Positions 54,335 to 62,177 of a stretch of DNA of 64,000 bases are shown piece by piece. The notes beneath the pieces were generated by a model, which searched no databases, was not told where the DNA came from, and saw nothing but the letters and a program-made list of their open reading frames with translations. The DNA lies in NCBI GenBank assembly GCA_965233585.1, contig CBDDTI010000745.1, forward strand, positions 32,001 to 96,000. Direction: 5' to 3'. The translations under genes were made by a program, and so were the position numbers. Positions within the stretch are counted from its first letter, which is position 1. The number at the start of each line of letters is the position of its first letter. This DNA comes from a bacterium (GTDB taxonomy: Bacteria; SAR324; NAC60-12).

Positions 54335-54378
54335 AGCCATTCTGGAAAGCCTGATTCCTCACTTTTTCCTCACTCCCC

Positions 54379-54790
54379 CGTCATTGCTCACCTTGACCCG
54401 CAATCTCCCTTCGTTTCATTCTGTTTTCACTCGTTTTTGAGATTCCGTGTCAGGCACCGAATGACAATAGTTGTCATTCCTGCGAAAGCTCCGAATCTAT
54501 GCTTGGTTTGGTGATAGATTCCGTGTCAGGCACGGAATGACTTAGAAGGTGCAGGCTTATCTTTTCGTCATTGCGGGCTTGACCCGCAATCTCACTCTTG
54601 TTTTTTGAGATTCCGTTCAAGCAAGGAATGACGGAGGGCGTTTGCAGGCTTGACCTGCAATCTCTTCTTTTCTCAATCTTCCCTTTTTCTTTTCTTCGTT
54701 GTAGGCTCGTTTTTTTGTCATTCCTGCGAAAGCAAGAATCCAGTCATGTAGGAATCTGTGCTATGTTGACGATGGATTCCGTGTCAAGCA
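54379..54790. repeat. REP-like palindrome cluster 7, last hairpin cut off at cas1
   Basis: CGTCATTGCTCACCTTGACCCGCAATCTC, GATTCCGTGTCAGGCACGGAATGAC, CGTCATTGCGGGCTTGACCCGCAATCTC. Confidence 0.9.
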
Positions 54791-55233
54791 GAGTGAAGGC
54801 AGATTCTATTAATTGTTTGCTGGATATTGGCTATACTTTGTTGTTTAACTTGATTGAGGCTCTTTTGCAGATTTACGGGTTTGATTTGTATCGTGGTGTG
54901 TATCACAAAGAGTTTTTTCAACGCAAGGCGTTGGTTTGTGATTTGATAGAGCCGTTCCGTCCTTTGATTGATTACAGGACACGCAAGGCGTATCAGCTGG
55001 GACAAGTGAAAGAAGAAGATTTTAAGGTCATCAACAATCAATATAAACTTTTTGGCAAAGACGCCAAGCCTTACACTCAACTTTATATGGAGGTTTTGCT
55101 GGAGTATAAGATAGAGATGTTTTTGTATATGCAAAGTTATTATCGTTCTTTTATGAGGGACAAGCCCATTGCGGACTACCCTGTTTTTAGCATGAGGCGT
55201 CAGGCAAAGAATGAAACCAAGCAAATTCAATAG
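54790..55233 (+). pseudogene. cas1: cas1 3' remnant (~147 aa)
   Basis: D.IN.LLDIGYT.LFN, G.YH..F..R.ALVCDL.EPFR..ID; upstream in-frame residues are translated REP DNA. Confidence 0.9.
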
Positions 55234-55245
55234 AGGAGGTATGAC

Positions 55246-55521
55246 ATGTTGATTGTGACGTATGATATTTCAGAGACACCTTTGCGGACAAGGTTCTCAG
55301 AGTTTCTTAAAAAATTTGGCTACCGTCTGCAATATTCAGTCTTTGAGATTGAAAATAGCAAACGAATTTTGGACTTGATTGAAACGCAGATAGAGACAGA
55401 CTTTAGCAAATCGTTTAGCCAGTCAGACAGCATCATCATTTTTAATTTAAGCCAACAATGCAAAATCACACGTTTTGGTTATGCCAAAAATGATGAGTCT
55501 GATTTGATAATGATCTCTTGA
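55246..55521 (+). CDS. cas2: CRISPR-associated Cas2
   Basis: MLIVTYDIS...RT.F..FLKKFG.RLQYSVFEI; GAGGAGG RBS. Confidence 0.95.
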   Translation: MLIVTYDISETPLRTRFSEFLKKFGYRLQYSVFEIENSKRILDLIETQIETDFSKSFSQSDSIIIFNLSQQCKITRFGYAKNDESDLIMIS

Positions 55522-55794
55522 CTTGTGAGATAAGAACGTTTAGAATGGCTGACTTGTCTATTAGGCTAAAGTCTATCGTGCTTTTTTAGGCAATTTTGGT
55601 CGCACTTTTAAAAGCCTTCTTTGGGTCTTGACTGTTGTCAATGTGTGGGGTGCGAAGTGAGGAGTGATACCGCTGATGGATCGCTTCTTTCTTGAAAAAT
55701 TGCAAACCTCGGTCTTAATGGCAGAAATCGCTCAAAATTCGCACTTTTGTCTTTGTTTTTTCACCAAGATATGCGGGTTGCAGGCATGTTATCT
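55518..55794 (+). promoter_or_regulatory. CRISPR leader with sigma70 promoter
   Basis: TTGACT(55518)-17 bp-TAGAAT(55541); non-coding region between cas2 and first repeat. Confidence 0.75.
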
Positions 55795-58716
55795 GTCTAA
55801 TAGACTTATTTAATTTCTACTGTTGTAGATACAGATTAGTTTTCAATTTGTCAAAAAAGTCTAATAGACTTATTTAATTTCTACTGTTGTAGATATTTTG
55901 TTTCCTTTAGTTTAAATTTTGTCTAATAGACTTATTTAATTTCTACTGTTGTAGATAAAAAATGAAACATGTTGTTCTCCTTGTCTAATAGACTTATTTA
56001 ATTTCTACTGTTGTAGATTAATTGGGACTTCAGGCAGTGAATCGTCTAATAGACTTATTTAATTTCTACTGTTGTAGATGGATTCTCTGAAAGCTGGAAA
56101 AGTAAGTCTAATAGACTTATTTAATTTCTACTGTTGTAGATATCATCTGTGTCTTTCATTAGATGATGGTCTAATAGACTTATTTAATTTCTACTGTTGT
56201 AGATCCTTTAGTTTTATGGTTGTTAAAATCATGTCTAATAGACTTATTTAATTTCTACTGTTGTAGATTTGAATCGGATTGACTGATTCAATGTTGTCTA
56301 ATAGACTTATTTAATTTCTACTGTTGTAGATGCTTCAGCTTTTTCTCGCTCTTGATAAAGTCTAATAGACTTATTTAATTTCTACTGTTGTAGATCAAAT
56401 ATTGAGACTAATGATGTTAATGTCTAATAGACTTATTTAATTTCTACTGTTGTAGATAAATGACAGTTTGCCGTTGATTCATCTGCGTCTAATAGACTTA
56501 TTTAATTTCTACTGTTGTAGATCATAGTGCATAAATTGCAATATTCGTGTCTAATAGACTTATTTAATTTCTACTGTTGTAGATTTCACAGAAAAAGAAA
56601 GGACTAATTTGTCTAATAGACTTATTTAATTTCTACTGTTGTAGATATGAGGTATTCTACTCTAATACCGTCGTCTAATAGACTTATTTAATTTCTACTG
56701 TTGTAGATACAGACCTACGCCTTTAAATTTTGATGTCTAATAGACTTATTTAATTTCTACTGTTGTAGATTTGGTGTAAACAATGCAGGATTTGCCTGTC
56801 TAATAGACTTATTTAATTTCTACTGTTGTAGATAAACCTAGATGCGTCAAAATTTAAGGGTCTAATAGACTTATTTAATTTCTACTGTTGTAGATACTTA
56901 TCTTATATTCTTTTCAAGTCGTCTAATAGACTTATTTAATTTCTACTGTTGTAGATAGGTAAACATGAAAGAAAAACTAAACGAGTCTAATAGACTTATT
57001 TAATTTCTACTGTTGTAGATAACAGCTCCAACCTAGTAATATAGTTTTTGTCTAATAGACTTATTTAATTTCTACTGTTGTAGATAACACTAGTTTTACA
57101 TCATACATATTGTCTAATAGACTTATTTAATTTCTACTGTTGTAGATATAGTCCGCCTTTTAATAATATTCAAAGTCTAATAGACTTATTTAATTTCTAC
57201 TGTTGTAGATGTGGTATGAGTCTTTTGGTTTTGAGCGTCTAATAGACTTATTTAATTTCTACTGTTGTAGATATCTATAAAAACCTTCAAGACTTAGAAG
57301 TCTAATAGACTTATTTAATTTCTACTGTTGTAGATAGAAGTCAGGAAAATAGTTACTTGACCGTCTAATAGACTTATTTAATTTCTACTGTTGTAGATAG
57401 AAGTCAGGAAAATAGTTACTTGACCGTCTAATAGACTTATTTAATTTCTACTGTTGTAGATCACGTCCAAACCAGTAATCTTAAAATGTCTAATAGACTT
57501 ATTTAATTTCTACTGTTGTAGATAGTGGGGGGTCTGGGGGATTCATCCCCCGTCTAATAGACTTATTTAATTTCTACTGTTGTAGATCTACCCCGTCCAA
57601 CACCAACCCGATAGCGTCTAATAGACTTATTTAATTTCTACTGTTGTAGATGTGATCTTTGCACTCTCGCTAAACTTGTCTAATAGACTTATTTAATTTC
57701 TACTGTTGTAGATAGTACTCAACCCTAAAACGATCTATTGGTCTAATAGACTTATTTAATTTCTACTGTTGTAGATAAATATGTATATCATCAACCCGCT
57801 AATGTCTAATAGACTTATTTAATTTCTACTGTTGTAGATATAGCTACCCAGCCCCCATCATACCCACGTCTAATAGACTTATTTAATTTCTACTGTTGTA
57901 GATGCCATCATGCCTGCCTGTTGATGAGAGTCTAATAGACTTATTTAATTTCTACTGTTGTAGATTGCACTGAATAGTGAGAGTAAAGTCGTGTCTAATA
58001 GACTTATTTAATTTCTACTGTTGTAGATCGTTTAACAGATTAAACAAAATCAAGGTCTAATAGACTTATTTAATTTCTACTGTTGTAGATATTCCTGAAA
58101 TGTTTTTGATTTTTCGAGTCTAATAGACTTATTTAATTTCTACTGTTGTAGATATACAGAAGACATTGACATATATCTAGTCTAATAGACTTATTTAATT
58201 TCTACTGTTGTAGATAAATCAAAGAAGGCGTAAGCCACTATGGTCTAATAGACTTATTTAATTTCTACTGTTGTAGATTGGGATGATGATACAGATGACT
58301 CTTTTGTCTAATAGACTTATTTAATTTCTACTGTTGTAGATCGTTTAACAGATTAAACAAAATCAAGGTCTAATAGACTTATTTAATTTCTACTGTTGTA
58401 GATATTCCTGAAATGTTTTTGATTTTTCGAGTCTAATAGACTTATTTAATTTCTACTGTTGTAGATATACAGAAGACATTGACATATATCTAGTCTAATA
58501 GACTTATTTAATTTCTACTGTTGTAGATAAATCAAAGAAGGCGTAAGCCACTATGGTCTAATAGACTTATTTAATTTCTACTGTTGTAGATTGGGATGAT
58601 GATACAGATGACTCTTTTGTCTAATAGACTTATTTAATTTCTACTGTTGTAGATATAGTTTTTACCTTTATTTAAAGTTAGTCTAATAGACCTATTTAAT
58701 TTCTACTGTTGTAGAT
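55795..58716 (+). CRISPR. Type V-A (Cas12a-type) CRISPR array, 47 repeats / 46 spacers of 25-29 bp
   Basis: 36-bp repeat GTCTAATAGACTTATTTAATTTCTACTGTTGTAGAT ending in the Cas12a handle AATTTCTACTGTTGTAGAT; last repeat has one substitution; counted by hand. Confidence 0.98.
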
Positions 58717-58880
58717 AAGATATGGGGTGAAATTATAATAGAGAAATTTTTGCATTTTCAAATTTTTTCAAAATAAGCTAACAGTAAAAAATCAGTTTCC
58801 ATAAAATTATGTTACTTAATTTTTATCTTTAAATCTCAAAACCTAAATCATCTTTTTTAGCATCAAGTAAGCCTTTTTAT

Positions 58881-59165
58881 TTATATTTTTTCAAACATAA
58901 TTTCAAATAATTTTAAAAAAATTTTCAGAATTTTATAGTCTCTTTCGTATAGTTCAAAGATGTTTTTATTTGCTTTGAATAAGTTACGCTTTTTACAATC
59001 TTTGACTAAATTATCAATAGCGTCTGGTTTCTCTTTTGAATTTGAAATCTTGTGTTCCCATTCAATAGAATCTTTCAATCCATAATAGGCATATGAATCA
59101 TCAGAATTGACCAAAAGTTTGTTTTCTCTCAATAAACTTGAAGGAGATAAGTCCCTTTCTATAAA
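58881..59165 (-). pseudogene. AT-rich gene fragment of unknown function
   Basis: Short open frame without a convincing start, in AT-rich DNA after the array. Confidence 0.3.
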
Positions 59166-59256
59166 TCAAGACGTTGTAACAATACCTGTAACAAATCAAC
59201 AATGAAAAAACTTTTAAAACCTCAAGAAACTTTTGATGTGAAGAAGTATGGTTTTA

Positions 59257-59355
59257 GCTTAAGTGTTCTTAGCTTGAGAACAGCGGTCAAGCTTAAATGG
59301 TTGAGACATTGTTTTGAGCGCTTAAGCGTTCTTAGCTTGAGAACAGCGGTCAAGC
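59257..59355. repeat. 36-bp direct repeat pair separated by 27 bp
   Basis: GCTTAAG(T/C)GTTCTTAGCTTGAGAACAGCGGTCAAGC at 59257-59292 and 59320-59355. Confidence 0.95.
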
Positions 59356-62177
59356 AGATAAAGGATAGAAAAATAAGGAATCCCGCTTTGTTCGCTTAAT
59401 CCAATTTCACATGAAATACTGTTAGAAAATCCTTCTTGACACGTTTGGACTTCACCTTTGAGATTGATAAGAGCTTGCTCATTCAATTCAGGATTGAAGA
59501 AGCCTTTGTCTCCCGCAAAACCACAACACGTTACTTCTTTAGGTTCAACAATTTCGCTTGCACAAAGCTGGGCAATATGTCGTAAGTCTTGACCGATTCC
59601 TAGCTTTTGACCACTGCATACATTGTGAAGAGCCACCTTCGTTTGTCTCTTAGTGATTTGAAACTTGTCAAGAAGGAATTTCCTAGCAAATTTAACTGCG
59701 TCATAGATGTTCAAGCGGCTGTCCAAAGTGTTCAACATGGTATAAGTGCAAGGGCTAATATCAACGCAGATTGGATAAACACCCTGATTGGAAGCCACTA
59801 AAAGAGCCTGTTCCAGTTCTTGATATTTGATTGATGCAGCCTCATCAAATCCCTTTGAAGAAAAAGCCATACCACAACAAAGCGATTTTGTATTTTCAGG
59901 ATAAACGACCTCATAATTTGCTTTTTCAAAAAGAGAGTGCATCACCTCTGGTAAGGTTCTTTGGTCTTGATGATAACTTGTAGGAGCAAAGAGCCGAGAA
60001 AGACAACTGGGAAAATAAACGACTTTTTGTGTGTGAAGTGAAGCAGAAATTTTGGGAGTTTTGAAAGGTTGAATCCTGCTACTGGGAGTGTATTGCAAAA
60101 AAACGGGTGATCCTAAATGTTGATGGCTTTTTTGAGTCAGTGCTTTCAAATTTCGCTTTCCTATGACACTAGAAACCAAGTCTATTGTTTTAAGACCTAC
60201 CTTTGCTCCAAAAAGCACAGAACTAAAATTTCTGGCAATCAGTTTTGCTATTTTGTGTTGTGTTGAAGAATGACGTTGTTTTTTGAGAACTTTGATCAAT
60301 TTTCCTGTGTCAATAGAAACTGGGCAGACCGTCTCACAAAGTCCGCAAGTCGCACAAGTGGCATTGCCATCATACTGATAGACTGCATCTAGCTTTTTGA
60401 ATGCTTCTGGGCTGTACTTTGCCTTAAAATCTTCTAGGTAACGATTGATTACAATTCTTTGTCTAGGTGTGAAGGTTAGTTGTTGTGAAGGACAAACCCG
60501 CTCACAAAAACCACATTCAATACATTTATCAATCAAATCGTGGGTGGTGGGCATTTCCTTAAAATTCTTGAGATGGACTTTTTGGTCATCATTCAAGATG
60601 ACACCCGGATTGATGAGATTGTCAGGATCAAAAAGTGCCTTGACTTCTTTCATCAACTGATATGCTTCTTTTCCCCATTCTTGTTCCACAAAACCTGCCA
60701 TATTGCGACCTGTTGAATGCTCGGCTTTGAGAGAACCATTCAGTTTAAGAGTCATTGCAACTACATCTTTTATGAAGGCTTCATAACGTTCTATTTCACT
60801 AGCAATGGTGAAATCTTGACAAATGACAAAATGGACATTCCCATCTAGCACATGACCAATGACGATTCCATTGTTATAGCGATGCTTGACAAACAAATCT
60901 TGTAGTTGTTCTACGCCAGAATTTAATGATTCAATAGGAAAAGCAATGTCTTCAATCAAATAGGTTGTTCCTAGTTTTCTAATCTGACCAAGAGAAGGCA
61001 TGATGCCTTTTCTGATTTTCCAGTAATTTCCATAAATCTTGGCATCTTTTGTAAATTCTATGGGTTGTAAATGGTTCAAACCTTCAAGGTTTTGAGTGAT
61101 AGTTTGAATCTGTTGGTTTAACGTGTCTTGTTGATTAGAAACGGTTTGCACCAATAATGCACAAGCTCCTTCAGGTAATGTTTTAAAATAACTAGGTGCA
61201 ATAGGTTGGTCTTCAGCCGAACGCAGAGCGGAACGATCCATCAATTCTGCGGCATTGACAATGCTTCTGATTGTGTTGAGTTTCTCTGCTGCCAGACAAG
61301 CGGTACTGACAGAATCAAAAATGACCAATGCACTAGCTTTATGAGTGGGTTCATCTACTGTTTCCAAAATCACTTCTAACAAAACTGCTAGAGTTCCTTC
61401 TGCTCCTACAATCAGGTGTTTCAAAATTTCAAAGGGGTCTTCAAAATCAACAAAAGCATTGAGGCTATAACCTGTCGTGTTCTTGATGGCATACTTTCTT
61501 TGAATTTTTTCTTTCAATGGTTGATTCTTCTCAATCCTTTGCGCAATGTCTGCTAATCCTTTTAATAAATGTTGATGAGTTTTTTGAAAAGATGCCTTGC
61601 TGTCTGCATCAGCAGTATCCAAAACACTTCCGTCAGCAAAAGCTAACTTGGCGTCCTTGATTGTCTGATAGCTATTTTGAGTGATTCCACAACACATGCC
61701 ACTGGCATTATTGCTGACAATACCACCAATCATCGCTGAAGCAAGAGAAGCAGGGTCTGGTCCGATTTTCTTCCCTAAAGGAGCTAACAGCTCATTGACA
61801 TATTCGGCTCTCAAACCGGGTTCTAAACGGATCGCTTTGCCTTCTTCTAAAATCTCATAATTTCTAAAGCCCCAATCTAGTGCAATCAAAACCGATTCAC
61901 TCAAGGTTTGACCACTTAAAGATGTTCCACCTGCCTTGATAGTGAAAGGCAAATGAAATTCCAAGGCAGTCTTAATACAGAGCATCAATTCTTTTTGATT
62001 GAGCGGTTTTAGCACAATTTGGGGAGTGATTCTATAAAGCGAAGCATCTGTTCCATACGCCAAAGTATGCACAGGGTCAGAAAAGACGCGTTTTGTGTCC
62101 ATTTGACTACGAATGGACTGTTCAAAATTTTGGTAAGATTGCATTGATTTTGATGAGGTTTCGCGAGCAAGAGACAT
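59322..62177 (-). CDS. FAD- and Fe-S-containing oxidoreductase, Dld-II-type D-lactate dehydrogenase
   Basis: YGTDASLYR, GGTSLSGQ, GPDPAS, KAEHSTGRNMA, CIECGFCE.VCP, C..CGLC..VCP, CCG domains. Confidence 0.88.
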   Translation of the reverse strand: MSLARETSSKSMQSYQNFEQSIRSQMDTKRVFSDPVHTLAYGTDASLYRITPQIVLKPLNQKELMLCIKTALEFHLPFTIKAGGTSLSGQTLSESVLIALDWGFRNYEILEEGKAIRLEPGLRAEYVNELLAPLGKKIGPDPASLASAMIGGIVSNNASGMCCGITQNSYQTIKDAKLAFADGSVLDTADADSKASFQKTHQHLLKGLADIAQRIEKNQPLKEKIQRKYAIKNTTGYSLNAFVDFEDPFEILKHLIVGAEGTLAVLLEVILETVDEPTHKASALVIFDSVSTACLAAEKLNTIRSIVNAAELMDRSALRSAEDQPIAPSYFKTLPEGACALLVQTVSNQQDTLNQQIQTITQNLEGLNHLQPIEFTKDAKIYGNYWKIRKGIMPSLGQIRKLGTTYLIEDIAFPIESLNSGVEQLQDLFVKHRYNNGIVIGHVLDGNVHFVICQDFTIASEIERYEAFIKDVVAMTLKLNGSLKAEHSTGRNMAGFVEQEWGKEAYQLMKEVKALFDPDNLINPGVILNDDQKVHLKNFKEMPTTHDLIDKCIECGFCERVCPSQQLTFTPRQRIVINRYLEDFKAKYSPEAFKKLDAVYQYDGNATCATCGLCETVCPVSIDTGKLIKVLKKQRHSSTQHKIAKLIARNFSSVLFGAKVGLKTIDLVSSVIGKRNLKALTQKSHQHLGSPVFLQYTPSSRIQPFKTPKISASLHTQKVVYFPSCLSRLFAPTSYHQDQRTLPEVMHSLFEKANYEVVYPENTKSLCCGMAFSSKGFDEAASIKYQELEQALLVASNQGVYPICVDISPCTYTMLNTLDSRLNIYDAVKFARKFLLDKFQITKRQTKVALHNVCSGQKLGIGQDLRHIAQLCASEIVEPKEVTCCGFAGDKGFFNPELNEQALINLKGEVQTCQEGFSNSISCEIGLSEQSGIPYFSILYLLDRCSQAKNA

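Follow-up and report, generated by a model that had tools for sequence, protein, structure and literature searches.

A 27-nt segment flanked by two copies of a 36-nt sequence in a SAR324 bacterial genome is very probably a real ectopic Cas1–Cas2 integration of a self-derived spacer. The structure lies in the window analysed here, a continuous stretch of 64,000 nt, which also carries a type V-A CRISPR array. The first copy (target copy 1, the redundant copy; 59257–59292, plus strand; GCTTAAGTGTTCTTAGCTTGAGAACAGCGGTCAAGC) and the second copy (target copy 2, the native 3′ end of a gene; 59320–59355, plus strand) were identical at 35 of 36 positions, with T and C, respectively, at position 8, and their starts were 63 nt apart. 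Between them lay the ectopic spacer of 27 nt (59293–59319, plus strand; TTAAATGGTTGAGACATTGTTTTGAGC), with copy 1 on the side adjoining its PAM-proximal end. The bases immediately bordering the copies differ (left, a/c; right, t/a), which limits the duplication to exactly 36 nt, and the sequence confirmed the sharp borders, single mismatch, and 27-bp insert described in the earlier note. An exact-string search of the 12.0-Mb assembly (747 contigs) found each 36-mer only once and the 27-mer exactly twice. The 36-27-36 structure is far beyond chance; the duplication has the length of the resident CRISPR repeat, and the insert falls within the length range of the resident spacers. The scar is located approximately 540 nt from the end of the array (58716), and the ectopic spacer is on the plus strand, in the same sense as the native array spacers. 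The chance of a random site falling that close to any end of the three arrays in the genome is about 0.0003 (a post hoc estimate from n = 1), and this proximity hints at a local bias.

The insert could be traced to a source within the same genome. When positions 58720–60000 were used as the query in a DNA search of the organism's own genome, the sole unexpected match besides the window itself was a 27/27 match at C729:40144–40170 on the minus strand, which covered exactly 59293–59319. The source reads ...ACGTTGAATTTTA, then TTAAATGGTTGAGACATTGTTTTGAGC, then TAGTAAAAAA..., and the identity ends exactly where the insert begins and ends. By chance, a particular 27-mer would be expected about 1e-9 times in the 24 Mb of both strands (from 4^27). 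At the source, TTTA is directly 5′ of the protospacer, whereas the opposite orientation shows ACTA; a TTTV motif precedes 2.7% of the positions in this genome. The identity of the PAM as TTTV was drawn from the type V-A literature and not from this system's own spacers. According to the accessible sections of two studies, Cas4 in type V-A adaptation selects spacers directly downstream of 5′-TTTN/TTTV (PMC13034035, PMC9419969). The search of phage, plasmid, and host sequences for the 27-mer and the check for a 5′ T-rich PAM, both proposed earlier, thus yielded a host source, with one extra copy on C729 and TTTA immediately upstream. No exact match to the 27-mer was found in viral contigs, and a plasmid search with the scar region and the source region returned nothing meaningful.

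The 27-mer lies over the beginning of the gene for a 239-aa GntR/FCD regulator, taking in its start codon and first five codons (MSQPF); this gene heads an operon with ABC-transporter, gluconolactonase, and PdxA-like genes. The 136-kb contig C729 has a GC content of 39.9%, compared with 39.8% for the genome overall, and shares a genome-specific palindromic element with C745–C747. Because the GC content, the palindromic element, and the ordinary operon context all match the genome, the spacer is self-derived and chromosomal. No tRNA was found near the C729 source. An AbiEii-family toxin gene (L041 13518–14183, corresponding to C729:43518–44183) is situated within the ABC-transporter operon, downstream of the donor regulator.

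The enzymes that could have made such a scar are encoded in the same genome. The array in the window (55795–58716, plus strand) consists of 47 repeats of 36 nt (GTCTAATAGACTTATTTAATTTCTACTGTTGTAGAT; the last repeat carries one substitution) and 46 spacers of 25–29 nt, and array parsing bore out the previously described proximity of such an array, 540 nt from the scar. Upstream of it are a 273-nt leader (55522–55794, plus strand), the last 40 nt of which show no difference from the main type V-A locus leader, cas2 (55246–55521, plus strand), the protein of which is 100% identical to that of the main-locus cas2, and a truncated cas1 (54598–55233, plus strand), which covers positions 182–316 of the 317 in the model and shows homology to the full cas1 from 54789. 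Further upstream in the window are yidC, an ABC exporter, and CPBP proteases. A domain search detected neither cas12a nor cas4 at this locus. A complete type V-A locus occurs 314 kb away on the same contig (C745 ~404.9–411.6 kb, minus strand), where cas12a has an uninterrupted frame (model positions 1–1287 of 1288) and cas4 (236 bits; cut-off 70), type V cas1 (384 bits; cut-off 300), and cas2 are placed at C745:404.9–406.9 kb. A Pfam Cas1 search of the whole assembly identified only two cas1 sequences, the window fragment and the full main-locus gene, and the sole full-length cas1 is type V. Because the locus in the window lacks cas12a and cas4 and its cas1 is truncated, the working integrase is encoded 314 kb away, and intact adaptation genes (cas4, cas1, and cas2) are present in this genome.

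The main locus adjoins a 198-repeat array, the two together lying at C745:391545–411607, and a third array of 17 repeats is found on C109. Between the window and the main locus, the cas1 fragment, cas2, and leader show 2 differences in 1042 nt, with proteins that are 100% identical, and no spacer is common to the window's array and the 198-repeat array or shared between any of the arrays. The array in the window has therefore expanded on a partial copy of the module that is of recent origin, with the proteins supplied in trans, and the sizes of the three arrays (47, 198, and 17 repeats) indicate that adaptation has been very active. Of the 259 inter-repeat intervals in the three arrays, 255 were 25–29 nt (25 nt, n = 14; 26 nt, n = 119; 27 nt, n = 85; 28 nt, n = 29; 29 nt, n = 8). 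The remaining four, in the 198-repeat and C109 arrays, were 143, 143, 839, and 1816 nt and represent insertions or rearrangements. In the window's array, a five-unit block occurs twice in tandem (58008–58633; spacers 36–40 = 41–45), spacers 25 and 26 are identical (57344–57463), and comparable block duplications occur in the 198-repeat array. A palindromic element around GTCATTGCGGGCTTGACCCGCAATCTC was found at approximately 100 sites across the genome (for example, at 54363–54790 in the window and on C745, C746, C747, C729, and C295); immediately upstream of the truncated cas1, the sequence consists of repeated palindromic-type elements, and spacer B_big_27 matches the palindromic element with two mismatches. 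In addition, positions 2204–2245 of the phage record MK496734.1 (a capybara microvirus) are 98.8% identical over 42 nt to part of the type V-A repeat and may represent a solitary repeat in a virus.

The duplicated sequence itself is ordinary genomic DNA, the conserved 3′ end of a gene, and not a CRISPR repeat. The gene (59322–62177, minus strand) encodes a GlcD/YdiJ-like protein of 951 aa in which a FAD-linked oxidase (FAD_binding_4 and FAD-oxidase_C domains) is joined to 4Fe-4S dicluster and CCG domains. It had been described as an Fe-S D-lactate dehydrogenase, a name that is unproven because every NCBIfam match (GlcD, YdiJ, and others) fell below its cut-off. The product is a GlcD/YdiJ-like 2-hydroxyacid dehydrogenase, for which D-lactate dehydrogenase is a likely name. 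Copy 2 contains the last 10 codons (LDRCSQAKNA), the TAA stop codon (59322–59324), and 2 nt beyond it, so that the target comprises 31 nt from the end of the coding sequence, the stop codon, and 2 nt downstream. LDRCSQAKNA aligned with the C-termini of 15 distant homologues, which share the motif YL-D-C-T/S; these were taken from 30 protein-search loci after partial and near-duplicate ones were left out. In 14 of the 15, the protein terminated at this point or no more than a few residues from it, and in one (L028) it was approximately 10 residues longer. Because these C-termini align, copy 2 is the native gene end and copy 1 the redundant product, which upholds the earlier claim that the gene end was regenerated by the duplication.

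Over its full length, the target matches the CRISPR repeat at only 7 of 36 positions, consistent with the earlier statement that the two sequences are unrelated. That statement needs a refinement for the ends of the target. In the orientation set by the PAM, the target's six leading bases, GCTTAA, match those of the repeat, GTCTAA, at four of six positions (background 4.1%), and the target ends GCTTAA...TCAAGC form a 5/6 inverted repeat (background 0.64%), compared with an inverted match of 4/6 at the ends of the native repeat. In the accessible text on the Francisella novicida type V-A system, integration is guided by the initial six bases of the repeat together with a palindromic motif present at each of its ends, and both sequence and a ruler determine the second integration site (PMC13034035). 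The end motifs of the target fit these signals, a link that we infer by analogy. The hairpin or cruciform potential of the 36-nt target was like that of shuffled sequences (z = −0.8 and −1.3).

From the geometry, the source of the insert, its PAM, the intact cas genes, and the native gene end, we infer the following enzymatic steps. A prespacer would have been cut from the organism's own chromosome directly downstream of 5′-TTTA, across the GntR/FCD regulator's start codon on C729, and trimmed to 27 nt. Cas1–Cas2 would then have missed the leader–repeat junction and performed two staggered strand transfers 36 bp apart at the gene end, after which gap filling would have doubled the 36-bp target around the insert, as it does the repeat in normal acquisition. 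Under this scheme, the selection and trimming of the prespacer would have been normal and the choice of target alone would have failed, the actors being the organism's own type V-A Cas4, Cas1, and Cas2. The event was neutral for the gene because the gene-proximal copy restores a complete end. The ectopic acquisition originally proposed for this site is thereby supported by the traced source, the PAM, the repeat and spacer lengths, the intact cas genes, the native gene end, and four contig sets that carry the structure. The copies differ from one another by one mismatch and the insert differs from its source at 0 of 27 positions; the single inter-copy mismatch suggests that the scar is not brand new, and its age is compatible with the extent (0.2%) to which the duplicated cas module has diverged.

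Template switching during replication or break repair, in which a nascent strand leaves the gene end, copies 27 nt from C729, and re-anneals 36 nt upstream at a microhomology, thereby doubling these 36 nt, is the sole rival with any positive evidence. To the left of copy 1, the 9 nt ATGGTTTTA, followed by GC, resemble the 3′ end of the insert (ATTGTTTTGAGC) at 7 of 8 positions with a 3-nt gap and could serve as the re-annealing site. However, the first junction has no microhomology (...GTCAAGC in the window versus ...AATTTTA at the source), and the template would have had to be reached at a distant locus. Moreover, this process predicts neither a duplication of repeat length, an insert of spacer length, nor TTTV at the source (2.7% background), and neither symmetric target ends (0.6% background) nor a position approximately 540 nt from an array. 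We therefore consider template switching improbable.

That the copies are terminal repeats of the adjacent array that have decayed, with the 27 nt as an old spacer, is far less plausible still, although several features of the site resemble the array. The terminal repeats of CRISPR arrays are known to degenerate, the last true repeat already carries one substitution, and the unit has the 63-nt period and strand sense of the array, 540 nt past the last repeat. Nevertheless, copy 2 encodes a conserved C-terminus that aligns with those of 15 distant homologues, the two copies are 35/36 alike but match the repeat at only 7 of 36 positions, and the 540-nt interval between the array and the scar contains no repeat remnants and has no second copy in the genome. 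A mobile-element footprint, either the target duplication of an excised insertion sequence or an att duplication left by a lost integrative island, is similarly very hard to credit: integrative elements often target and regenerate gene 3′ ends, but the 27-nt insert has no terminal inverted repeats, integrase, or transposase and exactly reproduces the start of a chromosomal gene, and 36 nt is far longer than the usual target duplications of insertion sequences. Tandem duplication by slippage was rejected, as 59293–59319 is unlike 59356–59382 and the repeated part is the 36 nt alone.

An assembly or sequencing artefact, in the form of a chimeric join or a collapsed repeat, might be suspected in a fragmented assembly of 747 contigs. 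All four separately built public contig sets (two samples from one study) spanned the 1.2 kb at 58700–59900 as an unbroken sequence without joints and with 0 differences, and the one-base difference between the copies is unlike a simple duplication artefact. The possibility of an artefact was addressed in contig sets, and 4/4 of them carried the intact structure; these sets may include the source data of the assembly, and contigs drop rare variants. A one-off assembly artefact is excluded by the four contig sets, and an artefact of any kind is extremely unlikely. In the contigs of the four runs, which hide rare variants, only the filled allele was present.

The ectopic integration reading also predicts what an unoccupied site would look like: the pre-integration allele would read ...GGTTTTA, followed by a single 36-mer and AGATAAAGG.... 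A DNA search of 40 related genomes, none of the same genus, gave three weak matches of 38–49 nt and no alignable locus. Protein-guided searches identified 14 loci in metagenome contigs (34–58% identity) and 16 loci in species genomes (34–46%). Among the 40 genomes and the 30 protein-search loci, there was no close relative showing the empty allele.

We also scanned the genome for further scars of this kind. A first genome-wide scan yielded 339 isolated short-range direct repeats, 40 of which had repeats of 30–42 nt and inserts of 15–45 nt. The insert recurred elsewhere in five of the 40: three were whole-unit repeated elements, one had an insert of 15 nt, and the fifth was the scar described here, the only one to combine a spacer-length insert, a second genomic copy of that insert, and unique flanks. 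Two other candidate inserts, at C746:558633 (perfect, 37 + 25) and C295:219548 (37 + 27), had no viral match. In a second scan, restricted to sharp-bordered 36-nt duplications with at least 32/36 identity and inserts of 10–44 nt, 56 duplications were detected. The insert measured 25–29 nt in nine of them, compared with approximately eight expected if the lengths were uniform. When inspected by eye, five of the nine were tandem repeats, and those on C389, C646, and C731 were assigned neither way. The suggested genome scan for 36-nt repeats around 25–29-nt inserts therefore did find such cases (9 of 56), but not in excess of the approximately eight expected, so that the scar represents a single event and not a class; neither genome-wide scan revealed a second traceable scar. 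Arrays with a 63–64-nt period on C540 (19446–27168, 107 units) and C679 (11770–16777, 57 units) were rejected as CRISPR arrays and are satellite-like, with no variable spacers, as is a tandem array of 107 units of 54 nt at C260:18–6990; in all three, the entire unit repeats, which shows that they are not CRISPR.

In the accessible part of one study, chromosome-derived spacers were lost when Cas12 was present, with lethal self-targeting in type V-A adaptation (PMC9419969). The Cas12a handle hairpin TCTACTGTTGTAGAT is present in all 262 native repeats but absent from the 36-nt copies. Because the flanking copies lack this crRNA handle, no guide RNA would be expected from the unit, and because no guide RNA should arise, a PAM-flanked self-spacer could persist without autoimmunity. 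When all native spacers were compared with their own genome, perfect self matches were found for three spacers of the 198-repeat array (at C747:994729–994755, C745:258859–258886, and C746:814425–814449), and none of the three had TTTV in either orientation. That the perfectly self-matching native spacers lack TTTV is in line with the harmlessness of the scar. Like self-targeting array spacers, the ectopic spacer comes from the host's own chromosome; it has a proper PAM but, unlike them, lies outside an array. This pattern illustrates survivorship, in which a PAM-bearing self spacer persists only where no guide RNA is possible and self matches within arrays lack the PAM. Among the native spacers, B_big_20 appears to be slipped by two bases (8 nt upstream, ATTTTAAG), and B_big_57, with a one-mismatch self match at C746:51754, appears to be slipped by one base (upstream, TTTTTTAT). 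Comparison of the spacers in the window's array with phage records gave only chance-level or repeat-derived matches.

Off-target integration by Cas1–Cas2 is already known and is well demonstrated in over-expression and in vitro systems, but natural fixed examples are few. Nivala, Shipman and Church reportedly described off-target integration producing "neo-CRISPR" units in Escherichia coli with over-produced type I-E Cas1–Cas2 (Nat Microbiol, 2018), and a preprint that cites this work calls the support from natural genomes of two other species "circumstantial evidence". For most natural examples the evidence is circumstantial, since it is usually not known where the insert came from. The scar resembles the reported neo-CRISPR units in having a spacer-sized insert outside an array and a repeat-length target duplication, the proposed first step in the birth of an array. 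It differs from the E. coli work in involving a native type V-A system in a wild population, in which it is fixed, judging from contigs, and in having its protospacer and PAM in the same genome.

The scar also shares several features with canonical type V-A acquisition, as set out in the accessible portions of the F. novicida studies (PMC13034035, PMC9419969): a 5′-TTTV/TTTN PAM, a spacer of 25–29 nt, a ruler-set duplication of 36 nt, and the importance of the first six target bases and of palindromic ends. It departs from canonical acquisition in that the target is not a leader–repeat junction, matches the repeat at 7 of 36 positions, and has no adjoining leader, and in that the product, without the TCTACTGTTGTAGAT hairpin, cannot give a Cas12a guide. 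Off-target integration has been described in vitro for Pyrococcus furiosus Cas1–Cas2 (PMC6698737) and for a type V-C mini-integrase (PMC13034035). In the available text of these reports, the non-CRISPR sites used, like the present target, share some sequence features of the repeat; those cases come from laboratory plasmid assays, whereas the event described here is chromosomal and was kept in nature. No natural type V-A off-target case was found in the literature searched, which lay mostly outside subscription journals.

What sets this scar apart is its complete provenance, the donor site, PAM, target, duplication, and enzymes all being found in one genome, and it therefore constitutes a natural experiment for type V-A adaptation. 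It implies that PAM-dependent prespacer selection and trimming work normally despite a failed choice of target and that the 36-bp ruler still operates where the target sequence has no relation to the repeat. For capture, a short symmetric motif at the two ends (GCTTAA...TCAAGC) may suffice. The scar also provides a concrete site that could be rebuilt to determine what type V-A integrases recognise.

Whether the unit has any function is a separate matter. It follows the array downstream on the same strand at a distance of 540 nt, with no terminator-like site found between them in a search of 58700–59500, so that read-through from the array would carry the 27 nt. Read in this way, the 27 nt would be perfectly complementary to the part of the GntR/FCD regulator gene on C729 that contains the ribosome-binding region and start codon. 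A read-through unit might then act as an antisense regulator made by a CRISPR integrase or, if the copies were re-targeted, as the seed of a new array, but we regard this as very doubtful. An Rfam search gave no family match.

Several minor observations concern the sequence of the scar. On the minus strand (59259–59309), the ATG of the regulator, brought by the insert, opens a 16-codon ORF (MSQPFKLDRCSQAKNT) that enters copy 1 in frame, directly behind the dehydrogenase stop codon; this ORF is probably meaningless. No 3′-end motif was seen across the native spacers. One native spacer (57211–57236) and the ectopic spacer have identical last 9 nt, GTTTTGAGC, for which the chance expectation is approximately 1e-3 over the 231 unique spacers, and the bases to the left of copy 1 (ATGGTTTTA) are similar to this shared 9-nt spacer end.
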